A stretch of DNA of 64,000 nt from an uncultured bacterium (GTDB lineage: Bacteria; Fidelibacterota; UBA2242). Positions 14,063-43,123 of this stretch are shown here, in pieces. Location of the stretch: contig CAYTUQ010000002.1 of the NCBI GenBank assembly GCA_964441235.1, positions 1,705 to 65,704 of the forward strand, written 5' to 3'. Every line of letters starts with the position of its first letter. The stretch's first letter is position 1. The notes below the pieces were generated by a model. The model was not told the origin of the DNA and did not search any database. It saw nothing but the letters and a program-made list of their open reading frames with translations. The position numbers and the translations under genes are program-made.

Positions 14063-15616
14063 ATGGACAAGACAATACTTATTAGTGAAACATCAAAAGA
14101 GACAAGAATAGCCATTCTTGAAAATGAAGATTTAGTAGAATTCTTTGTTGAGAAACCGGGAAGAACAAGAATGGTTGGCAATATTTACAAAGGAAAAGTT
14201 GAAAATGTTGTGCAGGGAATTCAAGCTGCTTTTATTGATATTGGTGATACTCAGAATGCATTTCTCCCTTTTTCGGAGATAGGTGACCCAACATCGGTTA
14301 CTACGATGATGGAAAGTATAAGTCATGATGATGAAGAGGACAGAGAAGAAAAGAAAGGTCTAAAACCTCGCAGACGTAGAGTTCCTCAAACTGGAGAAAT
14401 TAATCTAATAAAAGGACAGGATGTACTTGTACAGGTGATTAAAGAACCTTTCGGTACAAAAGGAGCTAGAGTTACAACTGATATCTCTATTCCCGGAAGA
14501 TTTCTTGTACTTGTTCCAGATGTTGATTTTATCGGAATTTCAAAAAAGATATATAACGTCTCTGAAAAAAAGCGTCTGAGAAGGATTGCGGATTCAATAA
14601 GACCTAAAAATTTTGGTCTGATCATAAGAACAATTACTAAGGGGAAAGATAAAAAAACACTAAATGCTGAACTTCAAAATTTGATGAAAATATGGCACGG
14701 CATAGAGGAGAATGTAAAAGAAAAAACCGCACCAATTTGTGTTTATAGCGATATGGAAATGGCAGCATCTGTTATTCGTGACCTGCTTACTCCAGATGTA
14801 AATAAAATCATTGTTGATACTAAGTATCTGTATAAAAATTTACATGCATATATTAAGTCAGTATCACCAGAATTTATTGATAAACTAAAATATTACCATT
14901 CGAGAAATCCTCTTTTTGAGCAAAATAATATTGAAAAGGAATTTGAAAAATCCCTTGATAAAAAAGTCTGGCTGAAAAGTGGTGGATTTATCGTAATTGA
15001 ACATACTGAAGCAATGGCTACAATTGATGTAAATAGTGGAAAATTTATAGGGAAAAAAGACCACGAAAAGAATTCATTAAAGATTGATCTCCAGGCAGCA
15101 AAAGAGATCGCCAGGCAGCTCAGACTTCGCGATATCGGTGGATTGATTGTAATTGATTTTATTGATATGGAAGAGGAGGAAAATAAAAAGAAAATATATC
15201 AGGAACTTGAACGTGAATTGAAAAAAGATAGAGCAAAAGTATCTTTGTCCCCAATTTCGGAATTTGGTCTACTCGAAATGACACGGCAGAGAGTTCGCGT
15301 AAATCTATTATATACTGTAAGTGAGGAGTGTCCAACATGTCATGGCTCAGGTCGAATTACTTCAAAAGAGTCTTTAGTAACTAAAATTGAAAGCTGGTTT
15401 AGACGCTTTAAAGTAAAGTCTAAAGAAAGAAGGTTGCATTTGCATGTTCAACCCGAAATTGCAGAGTATCTTAGAAAATCAACCGGGAACCTACTTAAAA
15501 GAATACAGTTGATAAATTTACTCCGGATAAAAATTTACGAAGATTCTTCAGTAAATATTAATGAGTTTAGAGTGTTTTCTGTAAAAACAGGAAAAGATAT
15601 TACTGATGAATATTAG
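14063..15616 (+). CDS. rng: ribonuclease G/E family (Rne/Rng)
   Basis: N-terminal S1 domain, RNase E/G catalytic core and a CPTCHGSG zinc-link. Confidence 0.8.
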   Translation: MDKTILISETSKETRIAILENEDLVEFFVEKPGRTRMVGNIYKGKVENVVQGIQAAFIDIGDTQNAFLPFSEIGDPTSVTTMMESISHDDEEDREEKKGLKPRRRRVPQTGEINLIKGQDVLVQVIKEPFGTKGARVTTDISIPGRFLVLVPDVDFIGISKKIYNVSEKKRLRRIADSIRPKNFGLIIRTITKGKDKKTLNAELQNLMKIWHGIEENVKEKTAPICVYSDMEMAASVIRDLLTPDVNKIIVDTKYLYKNLHAYIKSVSPEFIDKLKYYHSRNPLFEQNNIEKEFEKSLDKKVWLKSGGFIVIEHTEAMATIDVNSGKFIGKKDHEKNSLKIDLQAAKEIARQLRLRDIGGLIVIDFIDMEEEENKKKIYQELERELKKDRAKVSLSPISEFGLLEMTRQRVRVNLLYTVSEECPTCHGSGRITSKESLVTKIESWFRRFKVKSKERRLHLHVQPEIAEYLRKSTGNLLKRIQLINLLRIKIYEDSSVNINEFRVFSVKTGKDITDEY

Positions 15617-30395: not shown

Positions 30396-30929
30396 TCAAG
30401 TATTATTCTCAGTCGTCTGTTTATGTATAGATGTTATCAGGCTCTTTATTTGGATGTACCCGGATTCAATGGAATTATCTTCCTTCTTGTCAATTTGCAT
30501 ATTAAAACAGAAATCGGAATAATCTGATTTAAAGCCGATTCGTAATTGTACATTGCTATTATTAACGAAATATGCTGTCGTTAAATTGAAATCAATATTT
30601 AAATCAGCTGCTGCAATATAATTGTACTGAAAAATTTCTTTTACCAGACTATCTGAGGGTAGCAGAGACCTGCCAATATCAGAATTTAAAACAGGTATAA
30701 AACGGTTTGGGTCAATATTCTTGATAATCGGAAAAAATGCCTGGTGAATTATTGCCTTTATTTTAATACTATGCTCATCTATTAATGGGAAAAATACACG
30801 CTGTGCAATTTTAAATGGTATCGTATCAAATGGTAAACAAATGAGTATATATTCCTCATCTGAAGAATGCTGTGGACTGAGATTTCCGGTGCCCAATAAT
30901 TTTTTAACAGTTCGCTTTGATGTACTCAA
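30396..30929 (-). CDS. hypothetical protein
   Basis: ORF only. Marks the left edge of the defense island. Confidence 0.25.
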   Translation of the reverse strand: MSTSKRTVKKLLGTGNLSPQHSSDEEYILICLPFDTIPFKIAQRVFFPLIDEHSIKIKAIIHQAFFPIIKNIDPNRFIPVLNSDIGRSLLPSDSLVKEIFQYNYIAAADLNIDFNLTTAYFVNNSNVQLRIGFKSDYSDFCFNMQIDKKEDNSIESGYIQIKSLITSIHKQTTENNT

Positions 30930-31408: not shown

Positions 31409-31693
31409 ATGAGCATTAAAATAAAAAAGTTCGGCACTTTTGAGGGAGTTTTGACTCTACGCTCCTTGCTACTCTATTTTATTTACGGCAATAATTATAG
31501 AACTAAGCCTGCTGGTTATTCCGTAAATGATATTGGAAAAATAGATTTCTCCAAATTACGTAATGTTACAATTGGTAGGATTTTTTCTGAATTAAATATA
31601 ATTGAGCAGTGGGGACGGGAATTTACAAATATTATTGAATCTTGTAGGCAATATAAAAATATCGTTCCGGAATTCAAAGAAGAATTATTGTAG
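31409..31693 (+). pseudogene. remnant of HATPase_c_4-type (RecG-C-terminal-like) putative transcriptional regulator
   Basis: The C-terminal 'QWGREFTNIIESCRQYKNIVPEFKE' resembles the HATPase_c_4 tail 'G.GI.R..E.C...G.P.P.F'. At 94 aa it is far shorter than intact members. Confidence 0.3.
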
Positions 31694-32020: not shown

Positions 32021-32602
32021 ATGAAAAATATAAAGGCTATAGAAATCTTACAAAATTCAGGGAAGAAGATTTTCACCCTTTCTGAAATAAAGAATATTTT
32101 AGGCATTGAGAAAGATAATACAATCTACAAAAAAGTAGAATCTTTGATAAAAGATCGGATATTAAAAAGGGCAATTAAAGGAATCTATTATTTTACTTAT
32201 AATTCACCGTCAGATTTTGAATTAGCTAATCATCTTTATCAACCGTCTTATGTCTCTCTTACTTCGGCGTTAAATTTCCATGGAATTTTAGTCCAGGTGC
32301 CATATAAAATAACTTCTGTTACTCCTAAATTAACACGGGAAATTTATATTAACGAAAAGACCTTTAAATATTCTCATATCTCAAAAGATTATTTTTGGGG
32401 ATATCAAAAAGTAGAAGGATTTCTAATTGCAGAACCAGAAAAAGCATTTTTGGATGTTCTGTTCTTTATGAGCTTGGGGAGGATTATTATAAGTTACGAT
32501 GAACTTTTGTTAGATAGGATTGATTATGAAAAATTTTCAGAAATGACCAAAAAAATTAAAAACCCTAACTTTCACAGATTTTTAAAAAAATTAAAATTAT
32601 GA
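32021..32602 (+). CDS. AbiEi-type antitoxin/transcriptional regulator (type IV TA / abortive infection)
   Basis: N-terminal wHTH (KNILGIEKDNTIYKKVESLIKDRILKRAIKGIYYF). Its stop overlaps the start of the downstream AbiEii gene (ATGA). Confidence 0.55.
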   Translation: MKNIKAIEILQNSGKKIFTLSEIKNILGIEKDNTIYKKVESLIKDRILKRAIKGIYYFTYNSPSDFELANHLYQPSYVSLTSALNFHGILVQVPYKITSVTPKLTREIYINEKTFKYSHISKDYFWGYQKVEGFLIAEPEKAFLDVLFFMSLGRIIISYDELLLDRIDYEKFSEMTKKIKNPNFHRFLKKLKL

Positions 32603-33399
32603 TTACACCTGAACAGATTCAAGATTTATCAAAAAAAAAGAGGATAAATCAAGATACTATACTGCGAGAATATCTTCAACTTTTATTTTTGCAGAATCTT
32701 TATAGCGAAAAGTTGTCACAGAAAATTTATTTTAGAGGCGGAACAGCAATTCATTTGCTTTTAGGTTCTTCACGATTTTCAATGGATTTGGATTTTACTT
32801 CAGAAATTTCTACAACTTGTCTGGAAAAATTAATAAAAAAGATTGTTGATAGAATGAATTTGGAAATTCCAGATATCAGATTAAAATCATCAAGAAAAAG
32901 AATCAATCACTCATTTTCTAAGATTCTATCCTATTATCCAAAAGAGAAGAAATACCCTGTTAATATTGCAATTGATTTCTCTTTAAGAGAAAAACCTGTG
33001 AAAAAAACTCAAATAACAGTATTGAAAACTGATTTTCCAATAAGTGGTTTACCTGTAATTTCACATCTACATTGGCAGGAAATCTTAGCAGAAAAAATCA
33101 GGGCAATCTTGATTCGTGGAAAAGGAAGAGATTTATATGATATTTATTATTTGGTTATGAAAAATATCCGCCAGCTGGCAGATTGGGATGTGGTGAAAGA
33201 AAAAATGAAGATATATCCAGAAGTTGATATTGATACAAATATGAATACTCTTATTAGTAGAATTGAAAAATTGGGAAACAAAGAGCTTAAAAATGATTTA
33301 GCCCAGTTTTTACCTGATTCTGAAAGAAATTCTCTTTTGCCAATATTGAAAGACGAGTTAATTAAAGAACTTGAAAAATATAAACAAACACGAGGATGA
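32599..33399 (+). CDS. AbiEii/AbiGii nucleotidyltransferase toxin (DUF1814)
   Basis: YFRGGTAIHLLLGSSRFSMDLDF matches the GGTAL...R.S.DLDF nucleotidyltransferase signature. Confidence 0.7.
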   Translation: MITPEQIQDLSKKKRINQDTILREYLQLLFLQNLYSEKLSQKIYFRGGTAIHLLLGSSRFSMDLDFTSEISTTCLEKLIKKIVDRMNLEIPDIRLKSSRKRINHSFSKILSYYPKEKKYPVNIAIDFSLREKPVKKTQITVLKTDFPISGLPVISHLHWQEILAEKIRAILIRGKGRDLYDIYYLVMKNIRQLADWDVVKEKMKIYPEVDIDTNMNTLISRIEKLGNKELKNDLAQFLPDSERNSLLPILKDELIKELEKYKQTRG

Positions 33400-33490
33400 G
33401 TTTATAATTCGGTGAAAATTATGAACAAAAATAATTACCAAAATTGGACAAATGATGCTTATAATAATTAAATAGGACCATGAAATAGTT

Positions 33491-34216
33491 ATGGATGAAA
33501 AGAGTTGGATAAAAAATAGACCGGAGTATGAAAGACCTCGTGAAAAACTTTTGAAGTTTGGTTCTAAGAATCTTTCTAATTCGGAATTACTTGCTATCTT
33601 TCTTAGAATAGGTGTTAAAGACAAAAGTGCAATTCAACTTGCAGCAGAAATATTAGAAAAATTTGGTGGGATTAGAGGAATTTGTACTGCCAAAATAGAA
33701 GATTTACTTACAATAAAAGGATTGGGTATAGCAAAGATTGCTCAATTAAAAGCAACTTTAGAACTCGCTGAAAGGTATCTTAAAGAAGATGTTAAGCAAA
33801 AATCAATTGTAGAAAGCTCAAAGGAAGTTTTAAATTATCTTCATCATTCAATGCAAGATTTAGATCATGAATTAATGAAAGTAATCCTTTTGAATGGTCA
33901 AAATCAAATAATAAATATTGTAGATTTATTTAGAGGCTCTATAAGTTCATCAAGTGTTTATCCAAGGGAGATAATCAAATTGGCTCTTAAATATTCAGCT
34001 TTAGCAATTGTTATTGTTCATAATCATCCTTCTGGAATTTCAAAACCAAGCGAAGGTGATAAAAAACTTACAAAAGAAATTATTTTTGCATGTATTTCTA
34101 CAGGTATTAAAGTTCACGACCATATAATAATTGGCAATAAAAAGCATTATAGTTTTGCTGATGAGGGAATTATTGAAGTTTACGAAAAAGAATATGAAAA
34201 GAGGATGAAACTATGA
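33491..34216 (+). CDS. radC: RadC-like JAB/MPN domain protein
   Basis: N-terminal HhH (LLTIKGLGIAKIAQLKATLELAERY) and a JAMM motif (HNHPSG...S..D). Confidence 0.8.
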   Translation: MDEKSWIKNRPEYERPREKLLKFGSKNLSNSELLAIFLRIGVKDKSAIQLAAEILEKFGGIRGICTAKIEDLLTIKGLGIAKIAQLKATLELAERYLKEDVKQKSIVESSKEVLNYLHHSMQDLDHELMKVILLNGQNQIINIVDLFRGSISSSSVYPREIIKLALKYSALAIVIVHNHPSGISKPSEGDKKLTKEIIFACISTGIKVHDHIIIGNKKHYSFADEGIIEVYEKEYEKRMKL

Positions 34217-36096
34217 GTCCAGTAAAATATCAAAGAGTGGATGAAATAGAAAAAAGGGGATATTTAAGAGATTATGCAACGGGAAAATGGGTTAGGTCAA
34301 GGCCCGAAGAAGGACCAAGACAAATATTTGAAAAAAGGTTAGTTGGAGAATATGGCTACGACAAAGGTCAAATTGAAATTGAGTTCTTAATACAAAAAGG
34401 AGCTAGAAAAATCGGTCCTGCTGATATAGTTGTTTTTCACGATTCAAAAAGAAAAACATTTGATAACATAAAAATAGTGGTTGAAACAAAGAGAAAAGAA
34501 AAAAATGATGGAAAAGATCAATTAAGATCTTATTCAATATCACCATCCCAAGAATTTGCAGTTTGGTTTAACGGAAAAGACATTCTATTTCTACAGGTTC
34601 TGAAAAAAGCACCATGGTTTAGAGAAATCCCAGATATTCCTAAAAAAGGTGAGACATTAGAAGATGTAGGGCTTTATTATAAGAAGGATTTAAAACCTGC
34701 AACAGAACTGAAAACTGTTTTTGAGATTTGTCACAATTATATTTATGCAAATGAGGGACTCTTGAAAGAGAAGGTATTTAATGAGGTGCTAAAACTAATT
34801 TTTATCAAAATGGCTGATGAAAAGAAATCAAATCCCAAATGTGAGTTTAGAATTACTGACAAAGAATTAAAAGAATTAGAAGAGGGCAAAGAAAATGCAT
34901 TTGTGAATAGGATTTTGAATCTTTTTAGTGAAGTAAAAACAAGATATAGTGATGTTTTTGAGAAAAATGAAAGAATATATCTAAGACCTTTAACAATTGC
35001 CTTTATTGTCAGTCAATTCCAAAAATATAGTTTGATTAACACTAAAGCAGATGTTAAAGGAACAGCATTTCAAACATTTGTTTATGCTCATCAAAGAGGA
35101 GAGAGAGGGGAGTTCTTTACACCACATCCAATTGTTGAATTAGCAGTAAATATGCTAAATCCAAAAGACAATGAAAGATTTATTGACCCTGCTTGTGGTT
35201 CTGGCGGTTTCCTTGTTAAAGGAATGAATTATATTAAAGAAAAATTTATTAAAGATAATCCTCATAGGATAACTGAAGCAGATAAATTTATAGGTGAATA
35301 TGCACATTCTTATGTTTCTGGAATTGATATTAATCCTGATTTGGCAAAAGTTGCAAAGATGCACATGATTTTGTATGATGATGGACACACGGGAATTTTT
35401 TCAGCGAATACTTTAGAGAGTTTTGATAATTTGGTAAAAACTGCACAAGAAATGGGAGTTCCAAGAGCAATACAACCAAGACCAAATACTTTTCAAGTTT
35501 TGATGACCAATCCACCTTTTGGGACAAAGGGAAAAGTAACGAATAAAAGAATCTTGGAAAACTTTGAACTTGGCCATAAATGGAAAAACGATAAAGAAAT
35601 AGGAGGATGGATAAAAACAAATAAAATCTTGGATGGGCAAGTTCCAGATATTTTATTCATTGAGAGATGTTTGCGGTTATTGGACAATCATGGTAGAATG
35701 GCAATTGTTTTGCCTGACGGTGATTTAACAAATCAAAATACAGAGCATATAAGAGAATTTATTAAACAAAAAGCAAGATTACTGGCAGTAGTTTCTATGC
35801 CTATTGGAACATTTATGCATGCTGGAGTTAATCCAAAAGCAAGTGTATTGTTTTTACAAAAATTGGATGAAGAAAAATTAGAAGAGTTGAATAGAAAAGA
35901 TTATCCCATCTTCATGGCCATTGCTGAGAGGATAGGCTATGATTTAACAAGTAAAACACCTAAAATACTTTACAAAAGAGATGAGAAGGGAGAGATAATT
36001 AAATATAAAGAAGGAAAACCAATTATTGAATCTGATATTCCAGAAATAATAGAAGCGTTTAACGGATTCAAAAGGAAATATAACTTGAGGTTTTAA
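34213..36096 (+). CDS. hsdM: Type I-like N6-adenine DNA methyltransferase (HsdM) with N-terminal HsdR_N-like domain
   Basis: Motif I DPACGSGGFL and motif IV NPPFG. The N-terminal ~130 aa (ARKIGPADIVVFHD...IKIVVETKRKEK...QLRSYS...FAVWFNGKDI) match the HsdR_N PD-(D/E)xK-like fold. Confidence 0.75.
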   Translation: MSPVKYQRVDEIEKRGYLRDYATGKWVRSRPEEGPRQIFEKRLVGEYGYDKGQIEIEFLIQKGARKIGPADIVVFHDSKRKTFDNIKIVVETKRKEKNDGKDQLRSYSISPSQEFAVWFNGKDILFLQVLKKAPWFREIPDIPKKGETLEDVGLYYKKDLKPATELKTVFEICHNYIYANEGLLKEKVFNEVLKLIFIKMADEKKSNPKCEFRITDKELKELEEGKENAFVNRILNLFSEVKTRYSDVFEKNERIYLRPLTIAFIVSQFQKYSLINTKADVKGTAFQTFVYAHQRGERGEFFTPHPIVELAVNMLNPKDNERFIDPACGSGGFLVKGMNYIKEKFIKDNPHRITEADKFIGEYAHSYVSGIDINPDLAKVAKMHMILYDDGHTGIFSANTLESFDNLVKTAQEMGVPRAIQPRPNTFQVLMTNPPFGTKGKVTNKRILENFELGHKWKNDKEIGGWIKTNKILDGQVPDILFIERCLRLLDNHGRMAIVLPDGDLTNQNTEHIREFIKQKARLLAVVSMPIGTFMHAGVNPKASVLFLQKLDEEKLEELNRKDYPIFMAIAERIGYDLTSKTPKILYKRDEKGEIIKYKEGKPIIESDIPEIIEAFNGFKRKYNLRF

Positions 36097-37034
36097 TGAT
36101 GGAAAAAGAAAAAATGACTTTTGAGGATTTTTGGAATCATGAAACAGAATATTTTAAAGAAACGGCAAAAGAAAGTTTTAAAAAAAATAAACAGGGAGTT
36201 GAATATTTTATAGAATATCTCGATAATTATATAGATCTATTTGGCATAAACAAGTATTACCAAAAAGATGAAATAACAAATTCTATTTCTGCTATGTTTC
36301 TCTTTTACTCCTTTAAACAATTGCGATGGGTTAATCATGAGATTCTATCAGGTGCTTATTTTGAGGCAATCAGAGATTTAAGATTTGCATTTGAAACTAT
36401 TGTTTGGGCACATTTTTTAGATGAGTGGATTAACGAAAAAACAAAAGAATACCTAAAAGTAAGTATAGGAGCAGGAATATCTTTAAAATATGAGATTTTA
36501 AAGTTAAGAGATGAGATATATGATGTCAAAGGTTATAGAAAAAAGAAAAATGAAAGAGAGAAAATAGTTAAGGAAAATGTTGGCAAATTCATAAAAAAGC
36601 ATGCCCAAGATTTTACAAACGAAGAAACGTGGAAATATAAAGAACTTTATTTTGAAATCTTGAAGAACTTGGGAGTTGGATTTACTGGAAAAAATGGATT
36701 AATTGCTAAACTTCCCTTAGAAGAGGAAGATGAAAAGAAGTTGGACAAACTTTATTCAGAATTATCAAAATATATCCATCCATCAAACAGAATAATAAAA
36801 CCGTTTTATGAAGACGATATTGGTTTAATCTTTAATTTTTGCTATAATAAAATATTATTTAATAGCTGTATGAGGTTTCTTGTAGATGTTATGGACTTAT
36901 TTTATGCCATTCTTTACGTCCATTTTGAGAAACTTAGAGAAGTGATTAAAGAAAAAATTGTAGATTTTTGTAAGGTTAATTTTAATATGGAATTTCCGAT
37001 AACTGAAAAATTAATACGGGATGACCTAGTATGA
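36096..37034 (+). CDS. hypothetical protein embedded between hsdM and hsdS
   Basis: 312 aa with no recognisable motif. Start overlaps the hsdM stop and stop overlaps the hsdS start, so it is operonic. Confidence 0.3.
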   Translation: MMEKEKMTFEDFWNHETEYFKETAKESFKKNKQGVEYFIEYLDNYIDLFGINKYYQKDEITNSISAMFLFYSFKQLRWVNHEILSGAYFEAIRDLRFAFETIVWAHFLDEWINEKTKEYLKVSIGAGISLKYEILKLRDEIYDVKGYRKKKNEREKIVKENVGKFIKKHAQDFTNEETWKYKELYFEILKNLGVGFTGKNGLIAKLPLEEEDEKKLDKLYSELSKYIHPSNRIIKPFYEDDIGLIFNFCYNKILFNSCMRFLVDVMDLFYAILYVHFEKLREVIKEKIVDFCKVNFNMEFPITEKLIRDDLV

Positions 37035-39439
37035 TAATTTCAGAAGCAAAATTTTCAGAAGCTTATACCAAACTAAGATTTGATGCTGAATATTTTAAAA
37101 CAGAATTCATTGAAACACGATATAGATTAGAAAAAATTAATGCATCCAAACTTACTTCTATTGCTGAAATATCAAAATTAAGGAGGGATCCTACAAAAGA
37201 ATCGGATAAAGAATTTATATACATTGATATAAGCAATATTGATACATCTGTTGCTGATGTCAGTACACAGAAAATAATAGGTTATAAAGCACCAACAAGA
37301 GCGAGAAAATTAGTTCAAACAGGAGATGTTATAGTATCTACTGTACGACCGAATAGAAATGCCGTCGCAATTATACCAAAAGAATTAGATAATAGCGTTT
37401 GTTCTACAGGCTTTTGTGTTTTAAAACCGACGGAAGTAAATTTGCATTATTTGTTTGTTTTCTTAAAAACAAAATATGCAATAAATCAACTAGTAAGAGA
37501 AACTATGGCTTCTATGTATCCCGCAGTTAGTGAAGATCAAATTAAAAAGATATTGGTGTTTTTACCATCTTTTGAATTCCAGTTTCACGTAGAAAAACTC
37601 GTCAAAGAAGCATTTTCAAAACGAAAACTTGCTGATGAAAAATACAAACAAGCAAAACAACTTTTAGAAAAAGAATTAGGACTTGATAAATTAAAATTAA
37701 AAGAAGAAAAAACATTTGAAGCAAAATCATCAGAACTATTTGGAAGTAGAAGATTTGATTCTGAGTACTACAAGCCGAAGTGCAAACAAATCATAAGGTT
37801 TCTTAAAAATTCTGGGTTTGAAGTAAAGAAATTAAAAGAGATTGTAAAAATTTCAAATAAGAAAATTGACCCAACAAAGGAGCCAACCAAAAGGTTTAGA
37901 TATGTTCCAATAGCAAAGATAAATTCAAATGGAGAAATTGATGAGTGGGATGAATTTAATGGTTGGCAGGCACCAAGCAGGGCAAGAATGCTTATTAAAA
38001 AAGGGGATGTTTTAGTCTCATCATTAGGTGGTTCGCTTAACAAAATAGCATTAGTTCCTGAAGAATTAAATAATTCAATTGCTACAACAGGAACCTTTGT
38101 CATCAATTCTGAAAACTTTTATAGTGAATTCTTATTTTTATTATTCAGAACAGAACTAATCAAATTGCAGTTGGAGCGGAAAACAGCAGGTGCAATAATG
38201 ACTGCTGTTCCTAAAACAACTTTTGGAAATTTACTAATTCCAATTATTCCAAAACAAAAGCAAGAAAATATTGCAAAATTAATAAACCAATCTTTTACTT
38301 TGAGAAAAGAAGCAAAACAACTTTTAGAAGAGGCAAAAGAAAAGGTGGAAAGTATGATAGAAAATCCTTTAGAAATCTCTGAAACCCAACCCGTTCTCCG
38401 TAGTCCTGATAAAATTGGGACGAAGGGTGAACCTGAGATTATTATCCCTTTTCCTATTCCTTCAAAATTAATAAGCCTTAAACCGCCTGTCAAAGTAAAA
38501 TATAAAGATTACCAAATGCTTGATGGTTCAATAAAGAAATTGGTTCAACAAATAGGAGATGGTTCAATCATTAAAAGATTTGAAAAAACACCAATACCTA
38601 AAAGTAAAATAGATGTAGTTTGTCCTCATTTTCTTGAATTAAAATGGGCAACAGGATGTCCTTATGATTGTTCCTGGTGCTATCTGAAAGGAACTTTTAG
38701 ATTCTTGCCGTATAAAGCGAAACCACATATTAAGGATTTTGATAAGATAGAAAAACATACAAAGACATTTTTGGAATATGTTCAAACTCCTGAAGTATTA
38801 AATACAGGTGAGCTGGCAGACTCACTAATGCTTGAAGTAAAGAATAAATCATTTGTTAAGTTTATTGTTCCACTTTTTGAAAACCAAAATAAGCATAAGA
38901 TTCTCTTTTTGAGTAAATCAAACAAAATAGAAAATCTTTTATTACTTAATACACATCGTCAGGTTATAGTAAGTTTTAGTCTTAATGCTATTCCTGTGGC
39001 ACAAAGATGGGAAAAGAAAGCACCTTCAGTTGAAGACCGCATAAAAGCAGCAGGGATTCTATACAAACAACGATTTGAAGTAAGGATAAGGATAGACCCA
39101 ATGATCCCTGTGGAAAACTGGGAGCAACTTTATACTGATTTAATAGACCGCATATTTAATTCGTTTATACCTGAAAGAATTACTTTAGGTTCTCTTAGAG
39201 GATTACAGAGTACTATCAATGGAACATCAGATAAGTCCTGGGTAAAATATCTATCTGAACGCTCAAACTGGGGAAGAAAAATAGATATTAATTTAAGGCT
39301 TGCTATGTACAAAACAATTATCTCTTATTTAAATGAAAAGTATAAATATAATAAGGTCGCTCTTTGCAAAGAAACTTTGGCAATTTGGGATATACTAAAT
39401 ACGAATTATAAAAATATAAAATGTAATTGTGTGTGGTAG
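37031..39439 (+). CDS. hsdS: Type I specificity subunit (two TRDs) fused to a C-terminal SPL/COG1533-like radical SAM domain
   Basis: Residues 1-~450 carry two HsdS target-recognition domains (RFDAEYF...STGFCVLKP..., RFDSEYYKP...TTGTFVI...) with conserved coiled-coil spacers. Residues ~500-802 carry CPYDCSWCY (CxxxCxxC) followed by spore-photoproduct-lyase-family landmarks (LFLSKS, SFSLNA, IRIDPMIP). It is a single continuous ORF. Confidence 0.6.
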   Translation: MIISEAKFSEAYTKLRFDAEYFKTEFIETRYRLEKINASKLTSIAEISKLRRDPTKESDKEFIYIDISNIDTSVADVSTQKIIGYKAPTRARKLVQTGDVIVSTVRPNRNAVAIIPKELDNSVCSTGFCVLKPTEVNLHYLFVFLKTKYAINQLVRETMASMYPAVSEDQIKKILVFLPSFEFQFHVEKLVKEAFSKRKLADEKYKQAKQLLEKELGLDKLKLKEEKTFEAKSSELFGSRRFDSEYYKPKCKQIIRFLKNSGFEVKKLKEIVKISNKKIDPTKEPTKRFRYVPIAKINSNGEIDEWDEFNGWQAPSRARMLIKKGDVLVSSLGGSLNKIALVPEELNNSIATTGTFVINSENFYSEFLFLLFRTELIKLQLERKTAGAIMTAVPKTTFGNLLIPIIPKQKQENIAKLINQSFTLRKEAKQLLEEAKEKVESMIENPLEISETQPVLRSPDKIGTKGEPEIIIPFPIPSKLISLKPPVKVKYKDYQMLDGSIKKLVQQIGDGSIIKRFEKTPIPKSKIDVVCPHFLELKWATGCPYDCSWCYLKGTFRFLPYKAKPHIKDFDKIEKHTKTFLEYVQTPEVLNTGELADSLMLEVKNKSFVKFIVPLFENQNKHKILFLSKSNKIENLLLLNTHRQVIVSFSLNAIPVAQRWEKKAPSVEDRIKAAGILYKQRFEVRIRIDPMIPVENWEQLYTDLIDRIFNSFIPERITLGSLRGLQSTINGTSDKSWVKYLSERSNWGRKIDINLRLAMYKTIISYLNEKYKYNKVALCKETLAIWDILNTNYKNIKCNCVW

Positions 39440-39451
39440 AAAGGAAAGATT

Positions 39452-40549
39452 ATGTCTATTAAAGAAACAATATGGAAGATTGAACTGCACACACAGGCAA
39501 AGCATGAAATACTAAAGCGGTATCTTCAAGCGTGGCTTCCAATAATGAGTACTGTTAGTGGGCGTATTTTGTATATTGATGGCTTTGCAGGTCCAGGAAA
39601 GTATTTAGACGAAAATAATCAGCCAACTATTGATGGCTCTCCACTTGTGGCTATGAATGCAGCAATAAAGCACAAGTTACCGCTAAAGGCGGAGATAGTA
39701 TTTCTTTTAATTGAAGCAGACCCTAAAAGATTTGACTATCTTAAAAATTTGCTTTCAGAAATAACTTTTGCAGATAGTATGAAATATAAAGTAGTATGTA
39801 GTAAATTTGATGAAACTCTTACATCTATTCTAAACGACTTTGATGAGCAGAAGAAACAATTAGCTCCAACTTTTGCATTCATTGACCCATTTGGATATTC
39901 CGATACACCTCTTGCAGTTGTTAAACGAATAATGGAGAGCCCAAAGTGTGAGGTCCTTATTACATTTATGTATAGTTTTATAAAAAGAGCTATTGTCAAA
40001 CTCGACCAAGAAGATCATCTAGACATTCTTTTTGGTACCCAAGAATGGAGAAAAATTCGAGATATTGGTTATCCTTCAAAGAAACGAGAATTTGCCCAGC
40101 AACTTTATAAAAAACAATTGGAAAAGGAAGCCAATATAAAATATGTGCGTTTTTTTGAGATGATTAATAAGTTCAATCAAACTGAATATTTTTTATTTTT
40201 CGGAACTAATAGTCTTGAAGGACTTAGATATATGAATTCGTCAATGTGGAAAGTTGATCCGAGTGGAACATTTCAATTTTCTGATAGAACAAATCCTAAT
40301 CAAACAGTGCTCTTTACTCTAGAGCCTAACTATAACTTACTTAAAAGATTAATTGTCAGAGAATATAAAGGTAAAACGGTCTCAGTTGAAGAAGTTGATG
40401 AATTTGTATTAGTGGCTGGTTTCACTCATTTCAAAAAGAATATTTTGGAACCTATGGAAAGAGCAAAACCTGCTCAGATAGAAGTGATTAAGAGTAATAG
40501 GAAGAGAAGATATACTTATCCACCAAGAACTATAATTAAATTTTTGTAA
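39452..40549 (+). CDS. hypothetical protein with methyltransferase-like DxFxGxG motif, possible radical-SAM partner ('TcmP-like')
   Basis: LYIDGFAGPGKY resembles SAM-MTase motif I and FAFIDPFGY resembles a degenerate motif IV. Immediately downstream of the rSAM fusion, with a 12-nt gap. Assignment to the three-Cys-motif-partner family is from memory only. Confidence 0.3.
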   Translation: MSIKETIWKIELHTQAKHEILKRYLQAWLPIMSTVSGRILYIDGFAGPGKYLDENNQPTIDGSPLVAMNAAIKHKLPLKAEIVFLLIEADPKRFDYLKNLLSEITFADSMKYKVVCSKFDETLTSILNDFDEQKKQLAPTFAFIDPFGYSDTPLAVVKRIMESPKCEVLITFMYSFIKRAIVKLDQEDHLDILFGTQEWRKIRDIGYPSKKREFAQQLYKKQLEKEANIKYVRFFEMINKFNQTEYFLFFGTNSLEGLRYMNSSMWKVDPSGTFQFSDRTNPNQTVLFTLEPNYNLLKRLIVREYKGKTVSVEEVDEFVLVAGFTHFKKNILEPMERAKPAQIEVIKSNRKRRYTYPPRTIIKFL

Positions 40550-40643
40550 AAGAATTTAAAACATATTTTGATACAAAAATTAAATTTAATATCAGGTCAG
40601 TTTTAAAGTGAAATGCTAAATAAAAATTAAGGTGAGGAATAGG

Positions 40644-40922
40644 ATGAAGAAAAATCAGAAAACTGGCTACCAATATGAAAAATCTCAAGCAAAAAAACAC
40701 CGAGGTAAACATCTTGGTGGCCCAGGAAAACCGGATTATCAAAGAGGTAAAATTAAGGGTGAAGTAAAAGACTGGAAACATCCCGTACATAGCGGAGTAA
40801 TTAAAAAAGCCATAAAAAATGGTGTAAAAGAAGTTGTAAGTAAAAGTGGTTTCACAAAACCAGCTATACAATTGGCTAAAAAGAAAAATATAAAATTTAT
40901 AAGACGAGGAAAAAAAGTTTAG
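40644..40922 (+). CDS. small basic protein with PD-(D/E)xK-like motif (Mrr-cat-like restriction endonuclease fold?)
   Basis: GGPGKPDYQRGKIKGEVKDWKH fits D-x(9)-E-x-K. Very Lys/Arg-rich. RBS GGTGAGG precedes ATG 40644. Confidence 0.25.
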   Translation: MKKNQKTGYQYEKSQAKKHRGKHLGGPGKPDYQRGKIKGEVKDWKHPVHSGVIKKAIKNGVKEVVSKSGFTKPAIQLAKKKNIKFIRRGKKV

Positions 40923-41164
40923 AAAAAAATATAATTCTCCTATTCAGTCATTATAAATAAGATAAAAAATTTCTTATTTATAATGCAAATTTATTAGAAG
41001 CAATTGTTACTAAAAATCTTATTATTATGAAAAAAACATAGACATTTAGAGATTTGCCGATATAAGAGCAATAAATAGCATAAATGCAAAAGAAAAGCAA
41101 AATAGCTTTTTGAAGAAGCAAAAAGAAAAATTGAGAAGATGATTTTAAGATCATCTACAAGAAA

Positions 41165-41524
41165 ATGACTTTATTTATAGAGAACAAAATGAATAGAGAT
41201 AAAAATATCAGAAAAATAATTTCAAGAATGGTAGAGAAAATCAAAACTGAATATCAACCAGAAAGGATAGTTCTCTTTGGTTCTTATTCTTGGGGAAAGC
41301 CAACAAGGGATAGTGATGTAGATTTACTTATTATTAAAAAGACAAATGAAAGACATTTAGAGAGAGCAATTAGGGTTAGAGAAATTGTTGATAAAGAAAA
41401 CCGAATGGTTCCACTAGATATTGTGGTATATACTCCACAAGAGCTCAAACAGAGATTGAAAGCAAGAGATTGTTTTATAAAAACAATATTAACAAAAGGA
41501 GATGTAGTTTATGAACAAGAATGA
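41165..41524 (+). CDS. nucleotidyltransferase (MntA-like antitoxin, Pol-beta superfamily)
   Basis: LFGSYSWGKPTRDSDVDLLII is the GS...D.D motif. Overlaps the downstream HEPN gene by 14 nt. Confidence 0.7.
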   Translation: MTLFIENKMNRDKNIRKIISRMVEKIKTEYQPERIVLFGSYSWGKPTRDSDVDLLIIKKTNERHLERAIRVREIVDKENRMVPLDIVVYTPQELKQRLKARDCFIKTILTKGDVVYEQE

Positions 41525-41894
41525 AGCATTTAGATGGTTCAAACGAGCTCAAAAAGATATTGAAGATGCAGAATTCCTCTTGAAAGAAAGCCGAACTTTA
41601 GAAAATGTAGCACTCCTTATTCAACAAGCAATTGAAAAATATCTCAAAGGATTCATAATATATCATGATTGGGAATTGGAGAAAATCCATGATTTGATAA
41701 CGCTTATTAACTATGCGAGTAAAATTGACAAATCCTTTGAGAAGTTTGTTCCTTCTCTCAGAATTATCACTAATTTCTATTTTGAAAGCCGCTATCCTAT
41801 TACCTATGAACCAGATTATACAAAAGAAGAAATAAGAGAATCTCTTAAAGAAGCAAAGAAACTTATTGCTCTAATTAAAGAAAAAGTAAAATAA
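41511..41894 (+). CDS. HEPN domain protein (HepT-like toxin)
   Basis: HEPN helical fold with ...ESRYP...Y... signature. Paired with the MNT gene. Confidence 0.6.
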   Translation: MNKNEAFRWFKRAQKDIEDAEFLLKESRTLENVALLIQQAIEKYLKGFIIYHDWELEKIHDLITLINYASKIDKSFEKFVPSLRIITNFYFESRYPITYEPDYTKEEIRESLKEAKKLIALIKEKVK

Positions 41895-42013
41895 TGCTTT
41901 GATTACTTGTTCAATCCCCTGAAGCAACAAGAAGCAAAGCAACTCTTAGAAGAAGCAAAAAGAAAAGTTGAGAAGATAATGGATAGAGAAAGTGATAAAA
42001 ACAGGTAGGAAAA

Positions 42014-43051
42014 ATGTTTAAACCCAAATTTACATACACAAATAAAATTGTAAGGTTGCTTACCAGAATATCTGCAGCGAGAGAGATAATTCTTAATTCG
42101 CCTTTGATCCCGGGGTGGAATGTTACATTAAGGCAGGAAGCAATAATCCACAGTGCTCATTCGTCCACGCGTATTGAGGGAAATAGATTATCATTGGAAC
42201 AAGTAAGCGAATTATCTCTTGGAAGAGAAGTAATGGCGACTCGAAGAGATAAACAGGAAGTTTTGAACTATCTGAATGTGCTAAAAAATATTGATAAGCT
42301 GATAAAAGGAAATTCTATAAGTGAGAAAGATATCTTAAATATTCACCGTATGGTAACAGAAGACACATTAGACAATTCTAATGATTGTGGGGTTTATCGT
42401 AACCGTTATGTTGTGGTTGGAAATAGATTTACAGGGGAGATTTTCTTTAAGCCACCGCAAAATGAGGATGTTCCCGGGTTAATAGAAGATTTGATTGAAT
42501 GGATAAACTCTGAGGAATCAAAATCACTCGAGCCTGTTATTGAAGCGGGTATTGAGCATTATGAATTTGTCAGAATTCATCCTTTTGTTGATGGTAATGG
42601 GAGAACTGCAAGAGTTCTGGCAACTTTGATTCTCTACATGCGAGATTTCGACACAAAACAATTTTTTTGCCTTGATGATTATTACGATTCTGATAGACAA
42701 GCATACTATTTAGCATTACAAAGTGTTAAACAAGACACATTAGACCTGACAAACTGGTTGGAATATTTTGTCGAGGGAGTAAGTGTAAGCACTGAGGCTG
42801 TCAAAGAAAGAGTGATAAGGTTAAGTAGTGAGAGACTGAGAAGATCAAAAGGCGGGCAAATAGCTTTAACCGAAAGACAGATAAGAATTGTGGAATTTAT
42901 TAATAAAAATGGTAAAATAACTAATAGAGATGTACGGGGAATGTTTAAACTTTCGGATGAAGGTGCATTGAGAGAGATTAAAAAACTAATGGTGTTGAAA
43001 GTTATTCAAAGCCAGGGTAAAGGGAGAGGGTTGCATTATGTCCTTAAATAA
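42014..43051 (+). CDS. fic: Fic/DOC family protein with Fic_N and C-terminal wHTH
   Basis: HPFVDGNGRTARV is the Fic motif HPFx[DE]GNGR. N-terminal ...HSSTRIEGN... is a Fic_N motif. Confidence 0.8.
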   Translation: MFKPKFTYTNKIVRLLTRISAAREIILNSPLIPGWNVTLRQEAIIHSAHSSTRIEGNRLSLEQVSELSLGREVMATRRDKQEVLNYLNVLKNIDKLIKGNSISEKDILNIHRMVTEDTLDNSNDCGVYRNRYVVVGNRFTGEIFFKPPQNEDVPGLIEDLIEWINSEESKSLEPVIEAGIEHYEFVRIHPFVDGNGRTARVLATLILYMRDFDTKQFFCLDDYYDSDRQAYYLALQSVKQDTLDLTNWLEYFVEGVSVSTEAVKERVIRLSSERLRRSKGGQIALTERQIRIVEFINKNGKITNRDVRGMFKLSDEGALREIKKLMVLKVIQSQGKGRGLHYVLK

Positions 43052-43123
43052 GGTTGGCGATTAGGTTGGCGATTAGGTTGGCGATTAGGTTGATGATTAG
43101 GTTGATGATTAGGTTGATGATTT
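43052..43123. repeat. 12-bp tandem repeat (GGTTGGCGATTA x3, GGTTGATGATTA x3)
   Basis: Six perfect or near-perfect head-to-tail units, starting one base after the fic stop codon. Confidence 0.85.

Follow-up and report, generated by a model that had tools for sequence, protein, structure and literature searches.

Restriction-modification (R-M) and kindred systems mark self DNA by SN2 methylation, by phosphorothioation or by the insertion of 7-deazaguanine, and we know of no radical S-adenosylmethionine (SAM) enzyme described as modifying a DNA base after replication in connection with R-M. Enzymes of the BcgI/BsaXI type (Type IIB) combine a restriction-modification (RM) subunit with a specificity (S) subunit and have no HsdR; they cut to either side of a bipartite site and so release a short fragment. 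The methylation-associated defence system (MADS) uses a bipartite N6-methyladenine (m6A) motif, and MAD6, MAD7 and MAD8 are mandatory in its authors' MacSyFinder model (10.1101/2023.03.30.534895). Here we analyse a locus within a 64-kb stretch of DNA, called the window throughout, from an uncultured bacterium of the Fidelibacterota (GenBank assembly GCA_964441235.1, contig CAYTUQ010000002.1, positions 1,705 to 65,704). In this locus a predicted RM subunit (M) is encoded upstream of S::rSAM, an HsdS-like specificity subunit fused to a radical SAM enzyme (rSAM) of the spore photoproduct lyase (SPL) family, and of TcmP, a protein of the three-Cys-motif-partner type.

We lean towards reading the locus as two systems stacked inside a defence island, although taken as a whole the statement is one that we favour rather than hold with confidence. 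Its structural and evolutionary part, considered alone, is highly probable; for its functional part, belief and doubt are nearly balanced, with doubt slightly ahead. Neither the rSAM-TcmP cassette nor its association with R-M methylases has been described before, as far as we could find, and the chemistry of the cassette could be new to DNA.

A specificity subunit joined to a radical SAM domain

Alignment of S::rSAM with its relatives places the junction between the two parent proteins. The S part (PADLOC Specificity_I 5e-45, mad5 2e-41) contains two Methylase_S domains, corresponding to two target recognition domains (TRDs), and can be aligned over its whole length with the free-standing 446-residue S protein of a related locus, L005; the S half ends where that protein ends, at KVESMIEN in the window, and its TRDs are shuffled relative to those of L005. 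Standalone rSAM homologs begin at about residues 465-475 of the fusion, leaving some 20 residues that are homologous to neither parent. The gene order in L005 is RadC-M-X-S(446 aa)-MNT, rSAM and TcmP both being absent, and an unfused state is seen in another relative, L055, where the S stop codon overlaps the rSAM ATG (ATGA). Contigs retrieved from four independent assemblies match the window DNA at 100% identity, so the fusion is real and not an assembly error. When 1.84 billion representative proteins were searched exhaustively, the query itself was the sole protein to match both halves, and its 90% cluster has one member, found on 12 contigs. Matches of about 700 residues that might have been further fusions proved to be S subunits with three TRDs, and a 703-residue open reading frame (ORF) in L051 proved to be TcmP::rSAM; both candidates were rejected.

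The DNA around the fusion carries a 49-nt direct repeat, D1, that encodes the C-terminal helix of S and is present in three copies (76-86% identical; Table 1). These hsdS 3' ends bracket the 2.8-kb segment containing rSAM, TcmP and a small downstream ORF and, separately, the 0.84-kb MNT-HEPN pair, and the terminal TGA of copy 2 overlaps the MNT ATG (ATGA), which is the S-MNT coupling of L005. Because the three copies bracket accessory modules in this manner, they are best read as the traces of modules, each consisting of an hsdS 3' end and its downstream genes, that were stacked by recombination within the conserved helix. Copied hsdS 3' ends as recombination scars of stacked defence modules would be a point of general use.

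The same observations are the starting point for the main competing explanation, in which an autonomous rSAM-TcmP module, serving in PDC-M30-like defence, addiction or lesion repair, has settled in a recombination-prone hsdS 3' end, and the fusion is a recent, neutral or mildly deleterious loss of a stop codon with no functional link to M-S. We consider this explanation unlikely, albeit the foremost of the competitors. In its favour, the fusion is a singleton among the representatives searched and is confined to one clonal population; L005 works without the cassette; and the same route also stacked MNT-HEPN and Fic, which are functionally unrelated. The evidence that most bears against it comes from the neighbourhoods of related cassettes, considered below.

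Upstream of the fusion, M carries an HSDR_N_2 domain (Pfam, residues 31-143, E 1.8e-16, 60.6 bits against a cutoff of 25) followed by an N6_Mtase domain (Pfam, residues 291-561, E 1.3e-34), and its best match in the PDB is RM.BsaXI (8w0p), a Type IIB nuclease-methylase subunit (E 9e-25). Inspection of the motifs revealed GPAD71IVVF...IVVE91TK93 (GPADIVVF...IVVETKRK) in the first domain and methylase motifs I (DPACGSGGF) and IV (NPPFG) in the second. The D71...E91-x-K93 triad and methyltransferase (MTase) motifs I and IV are kept in the L005 ortholog, which is 63% identical to M, and nuclease and MTase motifs are conserved in nine of ten family members found beside related cassettes. A preliminary description of this DNA, which had proposed an HsdR_N-type N-terminus on M and the absence of HsdR or any helicase, is borne out on both points: the conserved D...ExK triad is intact, and none of the eight ORFs of at least 500 residues in the 64-kb window (on a contig of at least 209 kb) encodes either protein.

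Thus, as far as sequence can tell, a PD-(D/E)xK domain lies N-terminal to a gamma-class N6-adenine MTase in one polypeptide, and it is accompanied by a two-TRD HsdS-like subunit, with no HsdR within 64 kb. RadC-M-X-S therefore looks like a self-sufficient Type IIB-like module (BcgI/BsaXI-type, MAD2/MAD5-like), in which M is predicted to have nuclease activity and M-S to methylate, and to be able to cut at, a bipartite site; the M+S pair is best placed within an already-known kind of enzyme, as a further member. Since RM and S subunits without HsdR form a known class, the missing HsdR needs no exotic explanation. The earlier label of an orphan M+S module is accordingly misleading for an M that carries its own nuclease domain, and restriction, which was suggested to be delivered, if at all, by something other than HsdR, calls for no unusual source; an absent HsdR accounted for by an RM subunit with its own nuclease is also a point of general use. 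That the pair belongs instead to a classical Type I system, with hsdR elsewhere in the genome or lost so as to leave an orphan M-S methylase, is most improbable. S is a typical two-TRD HsdS, M matches Type I M models and inspection covered 64 kb of a longer contig, but no HsdR, an SF2 helicase joined to a nuclease, is encoded with M and S in the window, M lacks the HsdM N-terminal domain and has in its place a PD-ExK domain with conserved catalytic residues, and in L017, L030 and L055, where 8-10 kb around the relatives could be viewed, there is again no adjacent HsdR-sized helicase gene, although not all of their flanking ORFs were domain-scanned.

The rSAM-TcmP cassette across bacteria and archaea

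The SPL-family domain occupies residues 537-712 of the fusion and contains the CX3CX2C signature of the radical SAM superfamily, which in that superfamily serves the [4Fe-4S]/SAM site of a partial TIM barrel, as GCPYDCSWC, whose cysteines (C543-x3-C547-x2-C550) are invariant in 36 of 36 aligned homologs. Four further cysteines (531, 779, 798 and 800, in fusion numbering) are also invariant, which suggests an auxiliary metal or Fe-S site. The domain scores above the cutoff of Pfam SPL and below that of Pfam Radical_SAM (20.8 against 29.5), and it matches SPL in the PDB at E 4.5e-6. It is not, however, a true SplB: the NCBIfam model for true SPL, TIGR04070, gives a sub-equivalog 71-73 bits against a cutoff of 400, and the region aligned with what we take to be the position of the hydrogen donor, Cys140 of SPL, reads GE(L/I)ADS, invariant and without a cysteine. 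No PADLOC model matched the rSAM domain at E up to 1, and the rSAM-TcmP cassette is missed by the PADLOC (2023) and NCBIfam (June 2026) models.

The 365-residue protein that follows matches TIGR04474 with 218.9 bits against a cutoff of 53, over positions 2-262 of the 263 in the model, so that its tentative earlier assignment to the three-Cys-motif-partner type is upheld; the two methyltransferase-like motifs pointed out at the time, YIDGFAGPG and FAFIDPFG, do occur in it and do not vary within the family, and structure prediction gives an RlmJ-like methyltransferase fold followed by a C-terminal winged helix-turn-helix (wHTH). TcmP does adjoin a three-Cys (CxxxCxxC) protein here, but in place of the canonical Gp37/Gp68 this partner is an rSAM of the SPL family. 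On annotated actinobacterial plasmids TcmP adjoins a 'phage Gp37/Gp68 family protein' ('three-Cys'); the PADLOC models PDC-M30B and PDC-M41B pick them up at about 1e-105, and the window TcmP matches PDC-M30A at 3e-60. Comparison of the rSAM with Gp37/Gp68 by hhalign yields a probability of 0.2%. Because TcmP is shared and the rSAM has no detectable homology to Gp37/Gp68, rSAM-TcmP is best described as a variant of PDC-M30, a PADLOC candidate system, in which the partner of TcmP has been exchanged. In the paper library searched we found nothing on TcmP function, on experimental validation of PDC-M30, on GMT-wHTH or on SPL-like rSAM proteins in defence. Ophion, a radical SAM system, was rejected as a relative, its composition being rSAM, PHP and PRTase.

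To survey the cassette more widely we scanned one genome per species, which gave 190 rSAM relatives; 80 loci were fetched, and 83 rSAM loci entered a neighbourhood analysis based on hidden Markov models. The bacterial hosts include Dehalococcoidia, Zixibacteria, Nitrospirota, Omnitrophota, Desulfobacterota, Planctomycetota, Ignavibacteria, Clostridia and others, and the archaeal hosts are Methanoperedens, ANME-1, Halobacteria and Methanolliviera. With at least 1980 rSAM homologs (protein clusters), mostly standalone proteins of 305-350 residues and the closest 59-81% identical, the cassette is common and extremely conserved across domains of life. Relatives remain 59-82% identical to the window rSAM domain across phyla and archaea, and some metagenome-assembled genomes hold two or three copies, which indicates that the cassette is horizontally mobile under strong purifying selection. 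It is rare on viral contigs (four close matches among 2.9 million), and the plasmid and phage collections yielded no close relative, only distant true SPLs.

TcmP adjoins rSAM or is fused to it at 41 of the 53 loci that have at least 900 nt on both sides. Across all 83 loci, the two form a single TcmP::rSAM ORF in 25, TcmP precedes rSAM in 21 and follows it in eight, and TcmP stands elsewhere in the locus in six; in five independent contexts TcmP begins 6-15 nt after rSAM, the same spacing as in the window. Other N-terminal extensions of rSAM comprise GMT-wHTH domains, ParB/Noc-like domains and an intein. The cassette is thus repeatedly fused to DNA-targeting modules. ParB/Noc-like fusions occur in P0258, P0263, P0267, P0271, P0286, P0290 and P0330, and the apparent intein in P0287; fusions of ParB to methyltransferases, a parallel to ParB/Noc-rSAM, are common on mobile elements.

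An N6-adenine methylase of Type I, IIB or IIG kind is encoded within 8 kb upstream of rSAM at 14 of the 44 loci (32%) with at least 5 kb of upstream sequence, and RadC is present in ten of these 44; of the M-like genes detected in any part of the loci, 17 of 17 share the strand of rSAM. By a rough reckoning, chance alone would produce such methylase adjacency in well under 1%. The arrangements are varied: RadC-M(HSDR_N+N6_Mtase)-S-rSAM in L055, M-S-TcmP::rSAM in L017, RadC-M-255aa-S...rSAM-YhcG-Fic in L030 and M-TcmP::rSAM-MNT-HEPN in L051. In L023, L029, L018 and L012, RadC precedes a methylase of 1080-1390 residues (N6_Mtase/Eco57I/MmeI-type), which in turn precedes TcmP and rSAM, as separate genes in L018, L023 and L029 and as one TcmP::rSAM ORF in L012. 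The standalone rSAM with the highest identity, 81% (L090/L091), comes directly after the C-terminus of a large methylase of this kind.

These neighbourhoods speak against the notion that the cassette sits beside M-S incidentally. Upstream methylases on the same strand recur in unrelated phyla at a rate far above chance; translational coupling of S and rSAM in L055, M-S-TcmP::rSAM in L017 and the Type IIG-like MTase-TcmP-rSAM loci each join the cassette to a methylase; and S in the window is attached at the N-terminus of rSAM, exactly the site used by wHTH, ParB and TcmP-wHTH partners. On the other side, most cassettes stand alone, in varied contexts. Since about two thirds of the cassettes with sufficient flank have no detectable upstream methylase, the coupling is best regarded as facultative.

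The preliminary description had further treated the five genes from M to the small ORF as one composite system, and this stands in part. N6-adenine methylases, with or without S, and rSAM/TcmP recur on the same strand in unrelated lineages, but not as that exact set: X is restricted to close relatives, the small ORF to the window's own population, and L005 has neither rSAM nor TcmP, so the five genes are not one conserved unit. S::rSAM is unique to the window population, so there are no S-rSAM fusions elsewhere to which the partner gene could be linked; what is conserved is the linkage of rSAM to TcmP and of the pair to N6-adenine methylases.

Several other genes recur near the cassette. AbiE, MNT-HEPN, Fic and YhcG are recurring accessory defence genes around the rSAM system; YhcG/DUF1016 PDDEXK nucleases flank M-S-rSAM loci in two lineages (L017, 3812-4852; L030, 11000-12127), in L030 at the usual position of TcmP, and an AbiEii-like gene follows rSAM in L055 (11181-11828). 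A second, paralogous rSAM gene (about 370 residues) stands in tandem, with TcmP convergent, in L095 (7983-11261), L096 and L097, and three IMG/VR viral contigs are among such cassettes. In L006 and L010 a gene for a 382-residue protein with a weak Radical_SAM match (L006, 6779-7927) and one for a HATPase_c_3 protein precede the cassette. An MtnA-like isomerase of the IF-2B family (12 loci) and a phosphorylase of the MTA/5'-deoxyadenosine type (PNP_UDP_1, ten loci) also lie nearby, mostly in Dehalococcoidia (L018, 13283-15398; L032, 6879-7922 and 10160-12084; L033, L023, L031 and others); this recurrence is probably shared synteny, and a functional link through salvage of 5'-deoxyadenosine, a radical SAM by-product, is conceivable. 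Recurrent neighbour families that at first lacked annotation were rejected as cassette partners, being housekeeping genes in shared Dehalococcoidia synteny.

A proposed mechanism and its alternatives

In the reading that we favour, the first of the two stacked modules, RadC-M-X-S, would draw an N6-adenine methylase and a PD-ExK nuclease from M and bipartite DNA specificity from S. The second would be a portable, horizontally spread pair, an SPL-family rSAM with its extra four-Cys site and TcmP, acting jointly on DNA, with rSAM normally brought to DNA by an adjacent or N-terminally attached module such as the wHTH of TcmP, a free wHTH or a ParB-like domain. Recombination of this cassette into the 3' end of hsdS, with loss of the S stop codon, would have produced S::rSAM, in which S would tether the rSAM to the M-S recognition sequence in place of the wHTH and ParB modules. 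Together, rSAM and TcmP would covalently modify a DNA base by SAM-dependent radical chemistry, and the resulting mark would be a second epigenetic mark alongside that of the m6A methylases, serving to discriminate self from non-self.

DNA is probably the substrate, because the N-terminal partners of rSAM bind or target DNA and because of its SPL ancestry; the fold of TcmP, nearest to that of the nucleic-acid m6A methyltransferase RlmJ, gives further support. The sequences themselves show which genes and domains are present, the catalytic motifs, the build of the fusion, the scars of insertion and the co-occurrence counts; from these we infer that M is a nuclease, that rSAM and TcmP act on DNA, their chemistry and any role in defence. 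The broader proposition, that rSAM-TcmP is an unrecognised machinery, widespread among anaerobic bacteria and archaea, that modifies DNA or directs defence at it, employing radical SAM chemistry on bases and functionally coupled to N6-adenine R-M, is put forward tentatively, as we doubt it somewhat more than we credit it. Were it true, S::rSAM would be a natural experiment, a radical enzyme programmed by a Type I-style specificity subunit: the fusion to S predicts that any mark or lesion made by rSAM falls at the same bipartite motif that M methylates, so that the target sequence would be predictable and the product could be found by sequencing. The window is in this respect the most tractable, and an unusually direct, experimental entry point to the cassette.

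Several observations weigh against the two-module reading. S::rSAM is a singleton in one clonal population and may be a recent stop-loss accident rather than a product of selection; the strain variants L001-L004, with 100% identical DNA, provide no independent evidence of selection on the fusion. TcmP is absent from 12 of the 53 rSAM loci, most cassettes with sufficient flank have no detectable upstream methylase, and the proposed model leaves the role of X unexplained. The nuclease activity of HSDR_N_2-bearing methylases in M's family is an assumption, and the MADS homolog of M, MAD2, is known solely as a methylase. The case as a whole is built on sequence and model data.

A further such observation comes from L001 (JGI 3300031365), an independent metagenome assembly that is otherwise 100.000% identical to the window over 13.5 kb and carries a 30-nt in-frame deletion in tcmP. 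The deletion (window 39575-39604; L001 tcmP 11539-12606) is flanked by a GTAT direct repeat and removes exactly residues 42-51, IDGFAGPGKY, the invariant SAM-binding loop, so that the L001 gene looks like a natural catalytic-null allele. Loss of this loop implies that TcmP activity may be dispensable, or counter-selected, in the window population, and the relaxed selection it suggests is also what incidental stacking of an autonomous cassette would lead one to expect.

The deletion likewise bears on models in which rSAM itself does harm. In one of these, rSAM is the restriction effector carried by S in HsdR's stead, damaging or cross-linking unmethylated DNA by radical chemistry (for instance SPL chemistry in reverse), and methylation by M, TcmP or both protects self. 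The absence of HsdR, the fusion of rSAM to S, much as HsdR docks on M2S, the defence-island setting and the occurrence of rSAM with M-S but without TcmP in L055, L030 and L020 fit such a role. We nevertheless judge it improbable, as M already carries an intact nuclease motif; rSAM has no methylase at most loci and no TcmP at 12 of 53, where it would be toxic to its own host under this model; and in L001 the loop deletion stands beside an intact rSAM in a viable strain. To our knowledge, moreover, no radical SAM enzyme acts as a nuclease-like DNA toxin. The loci without TcmP and the loop deletion in L001 also argue against a toxic rSAM that is restrained by TcmP.

The island and comparison with known systems

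The window is a segment of bacterial chromosome of low GC content (about 35%), with housekeeping genes that include those for AspRS, RNase E/G and a TonB-dependent receptor, and with a cobalamin riboswitch; no tRNA or rRNA genes were found in its 64 kb. GC content dips to 0.27-0.33 across an island at about 30.2-43.1 kb, and the plus strand carries every gene over 32021-43051 (Table 1). All five ORFs of the preliminary description lie where it had placed them, on one strand with overlaps or short gaps: M and X overlap by 1 nt and X and S by 4 nt, and gaps of 12 nt and 94 nt separate S::rSAM from TcmP and TcmP from the small ORF. RadC and M share 4 nt, at the stop codon of the former and the start of the latter, and the methylase likewise comes after RadC in L005, L055, L030, L023, L029, L018 and L012; for both reasons the operon should be counted as beginning one gene further upstream, with RadC as its first gene. 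A scan for promoters and terminators gave the same counts as expected from shuffled sequence.

Table 1. Genes, domains and repeat copies of the defence island (positions in the window).
Feature	Position	Strand	Evidence or remark
AbiEi/AbiEii pair, abortive infection	32021-33399	+	PADLOC AbiEi 2e-32, AbiEii 8e-35; upstream, defence-island context
RadC (JAB domain)	33491-34216	+	Pfam RadC 5.9e-40; NCBIfam NF000642, 248 bits against a cutoff of 180
M, 627 aa, probable bifunctional nuclease-methyltransferase (RM) subunit	34213-36096	+	HSDR_N_2 and gamma-class N6-adenine MTase
X, 312 aa, between M and S	36096-37034	+	no family match
S::rSAM, 802 aa	37031-39439	+	two Methylase_S domains, then SPL-family rSAM
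S part of S::rSAM, complete two-TRD specificity subunit, about aa 1-450	37031-38380	+	
D1 copy 1	38310-38358		live S 3' end at fusion junction
Fusion linker, about aa 451-473	38381-38449	+	PLEISETQPVLRSPDKIGTKGEP; homology to neither parent
SPL-family radical SAM domain, about aa 474-802	38450-39439	+	Pfam SPL 1.5e-15
TcmP, 365 aa, predicted RlmJ-like class I methyltransferase fold with C-terminal wHTH	39452-40549	+	TIGR04474
Small basic protein, 92 aa	40644-40922	+	possibly a minimal Mrr-like PD-(D/E)xK domain; lineage-specific
D1 copy 2, decayed hsdS 3' end	41095-41143	+	76% identical to 38310-38358; in-frame TAG; S frame KAK, stop, LFEEAKRKIEKMILRSSTRK, stop; right border of the 2.8-kb rSAM-TcmP-small insertion
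MNT, of MNT-HEPN toxin-antitoxin pair	41165-41524	+	NTP_transf_2 3.9e-12
HEPN, of MNT-HEPN toxin-antitoxin pair	41511-41894	+	HEPN 4.5e-24
D1 copy 3, hsdS 3' end	41932-41980	+	86% identical to reference copy 41095-41143; S frame QEAKQLLEEAKRKVEKIMDRESDKNR, stop; directly upstream of Fic
Fic/DOC protein	42014-43051	+	Fic 4.9e-22; final gene of low-GC island

X has no match in Pfam, NCBIfam or PADLOC (E up to 1-5) or in the PDB (phmmer), even when searched with a profile, and only six homologs were found among 5.8 billion clusters, all of them in close relatives of the window; the one in L005 occupies the same position, M-X-S, and is 77% identical. The protein is all-helical, and its single-sequence AlphaFold2 model is poor (predicted local distance difference test score, pLDDT, 45). 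The 255-residue gene at the equivalent position in L030 was rejected as a counterpart of X, hhalign showing no homology. For the small ORF, whose mechanical limits are 40632-40922, the real start is the ATG at 40644, which follows a strong Shine-Dalgarno sequence, GGTGAGGA, and gives 92 residues. Of the earlier view that it encodes a basic PD-(D/E)xK-like protein, the basic 92-residue product stands, and the nuclease label is sub-threshold (Mrr_cat, E 0.0064, 17 bits against a cutoff of 21); an FdhD match is likewise sub-threshold, and the PDB gave no match. The protein is possibly a minimal Mrr-like PD-(D/E)xK domain; it is confined to the window's own population and is missing after TcmP in the other cassettes examined.

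Downstream, MNT genes also follow S in L005 and TcmP::rSAM in L051 and L063, and L030 and L012 have Fic homologs in the vicinity of the cassette. A 12-nt tandem repeat (ATTAGGTTGGCG / ATTAGGTTGATG, about six units) starts at the stop codon of Fic, where the island ends on the right, and extends over 43048-43119; it may mark the border of the island or have a regulatory role. The left end holds a fragment of 94 residues (31409-31693) that matches only the C-terminal HATPase_c_4 of a RecG-like/AlbA-type regulator and a minus-strand ORF of 177 residues without annotation (30396-30929); these are probably remnants of older island content. The window encodes a second, unrelated radical SAM protein (11521-14040; 839 residues; Radical_SAM_N2, Radical_SAM and DUF2344), which is chromosomal, outside the island, directly upstream of the RNase E/G gene (14063-15616).

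Among described systems, Type IIB enzymes (BcgI, BsaXI) share with the window a subunit of about 630 residues in which a PD-(D/E)xK domain precedes a gamma-class N6-adenine methylase (NPPF), a separate two-TRD HsdS-like subunit and the lack of a helicase or HsdR. They differ in that the window nuclease domain is of HSDR_N_2 type and shows no sequence alignment to the N-terminus of BsaXI, that the operon adds RadC and X, and that S here runs on into a radical SAM enzyme.

MADS (mad1-8 of Pseudomonas aeruginosa) resembles the window system in being methylation-based, with a bipartite target and a defence-island location, and M and S are homologous over their full length to MAD2 (NCBIfam 1.6e-142) and MAD5 (5.7e-39). 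Both matches, however, stay under the NCBIfam equivalog thresholds (476 bits where MAD2 requires 720, and 134 where MAD5 requires 400), and among the MADS models a PADLOC scan of ten island proteins returned only mad2 on M and mad5 on S, with neither the kinase MAD3 nor the mandatory MAD6-8. Owing to the sub-cutoff scores and the lack of MAD6-8 among the island proteins scanned, the window system is not MADS, and this identity was rejected; that it is a reduced or variant MADS is barely credible, despite the full-length matches in NCBIfam and PADLOC and the bipartite m6A motif, given in addition that the accessory genes differ (X, rSAM and TcmP) and that rSAM and TcmP are not part of MADS.

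The two cassette proteins each have a closest described counterpart. The fold of TcmP is closest to that of RlmJ (DUF519), the 23S rRNA m6A2030 methyltransferase, and TcmP has the DPFG motif, but it is only 15-16% identical to RlmJ and has a C-terminal wHTH and an obligate partner of rSAM type. The rSAM shares with SplB its Pfam family (PF20903) and a CX3CX2C motif followed by an aromatic residue, and the substrate of SplB is DNA; unlike SplB, it scores 71 against 400 bits, has four extra invariant cysteines and occurs in non-sporulating anaerobes and in archaea, always in mobile or defence contexts. As a pair, finally, they resemble PDC-M30/PDC-M41 (TcmP with Gp37/Gp68, DUF5131), likewise a two-gene cassette of TcmP and a CxxxCxxC protein carried in mobile elements and defence islands, whereas the partner in the window is an SPL-family rSAM of about 330 residues, of a kind that is often fused to TcmP and often placed after an N6-adenine methylase.

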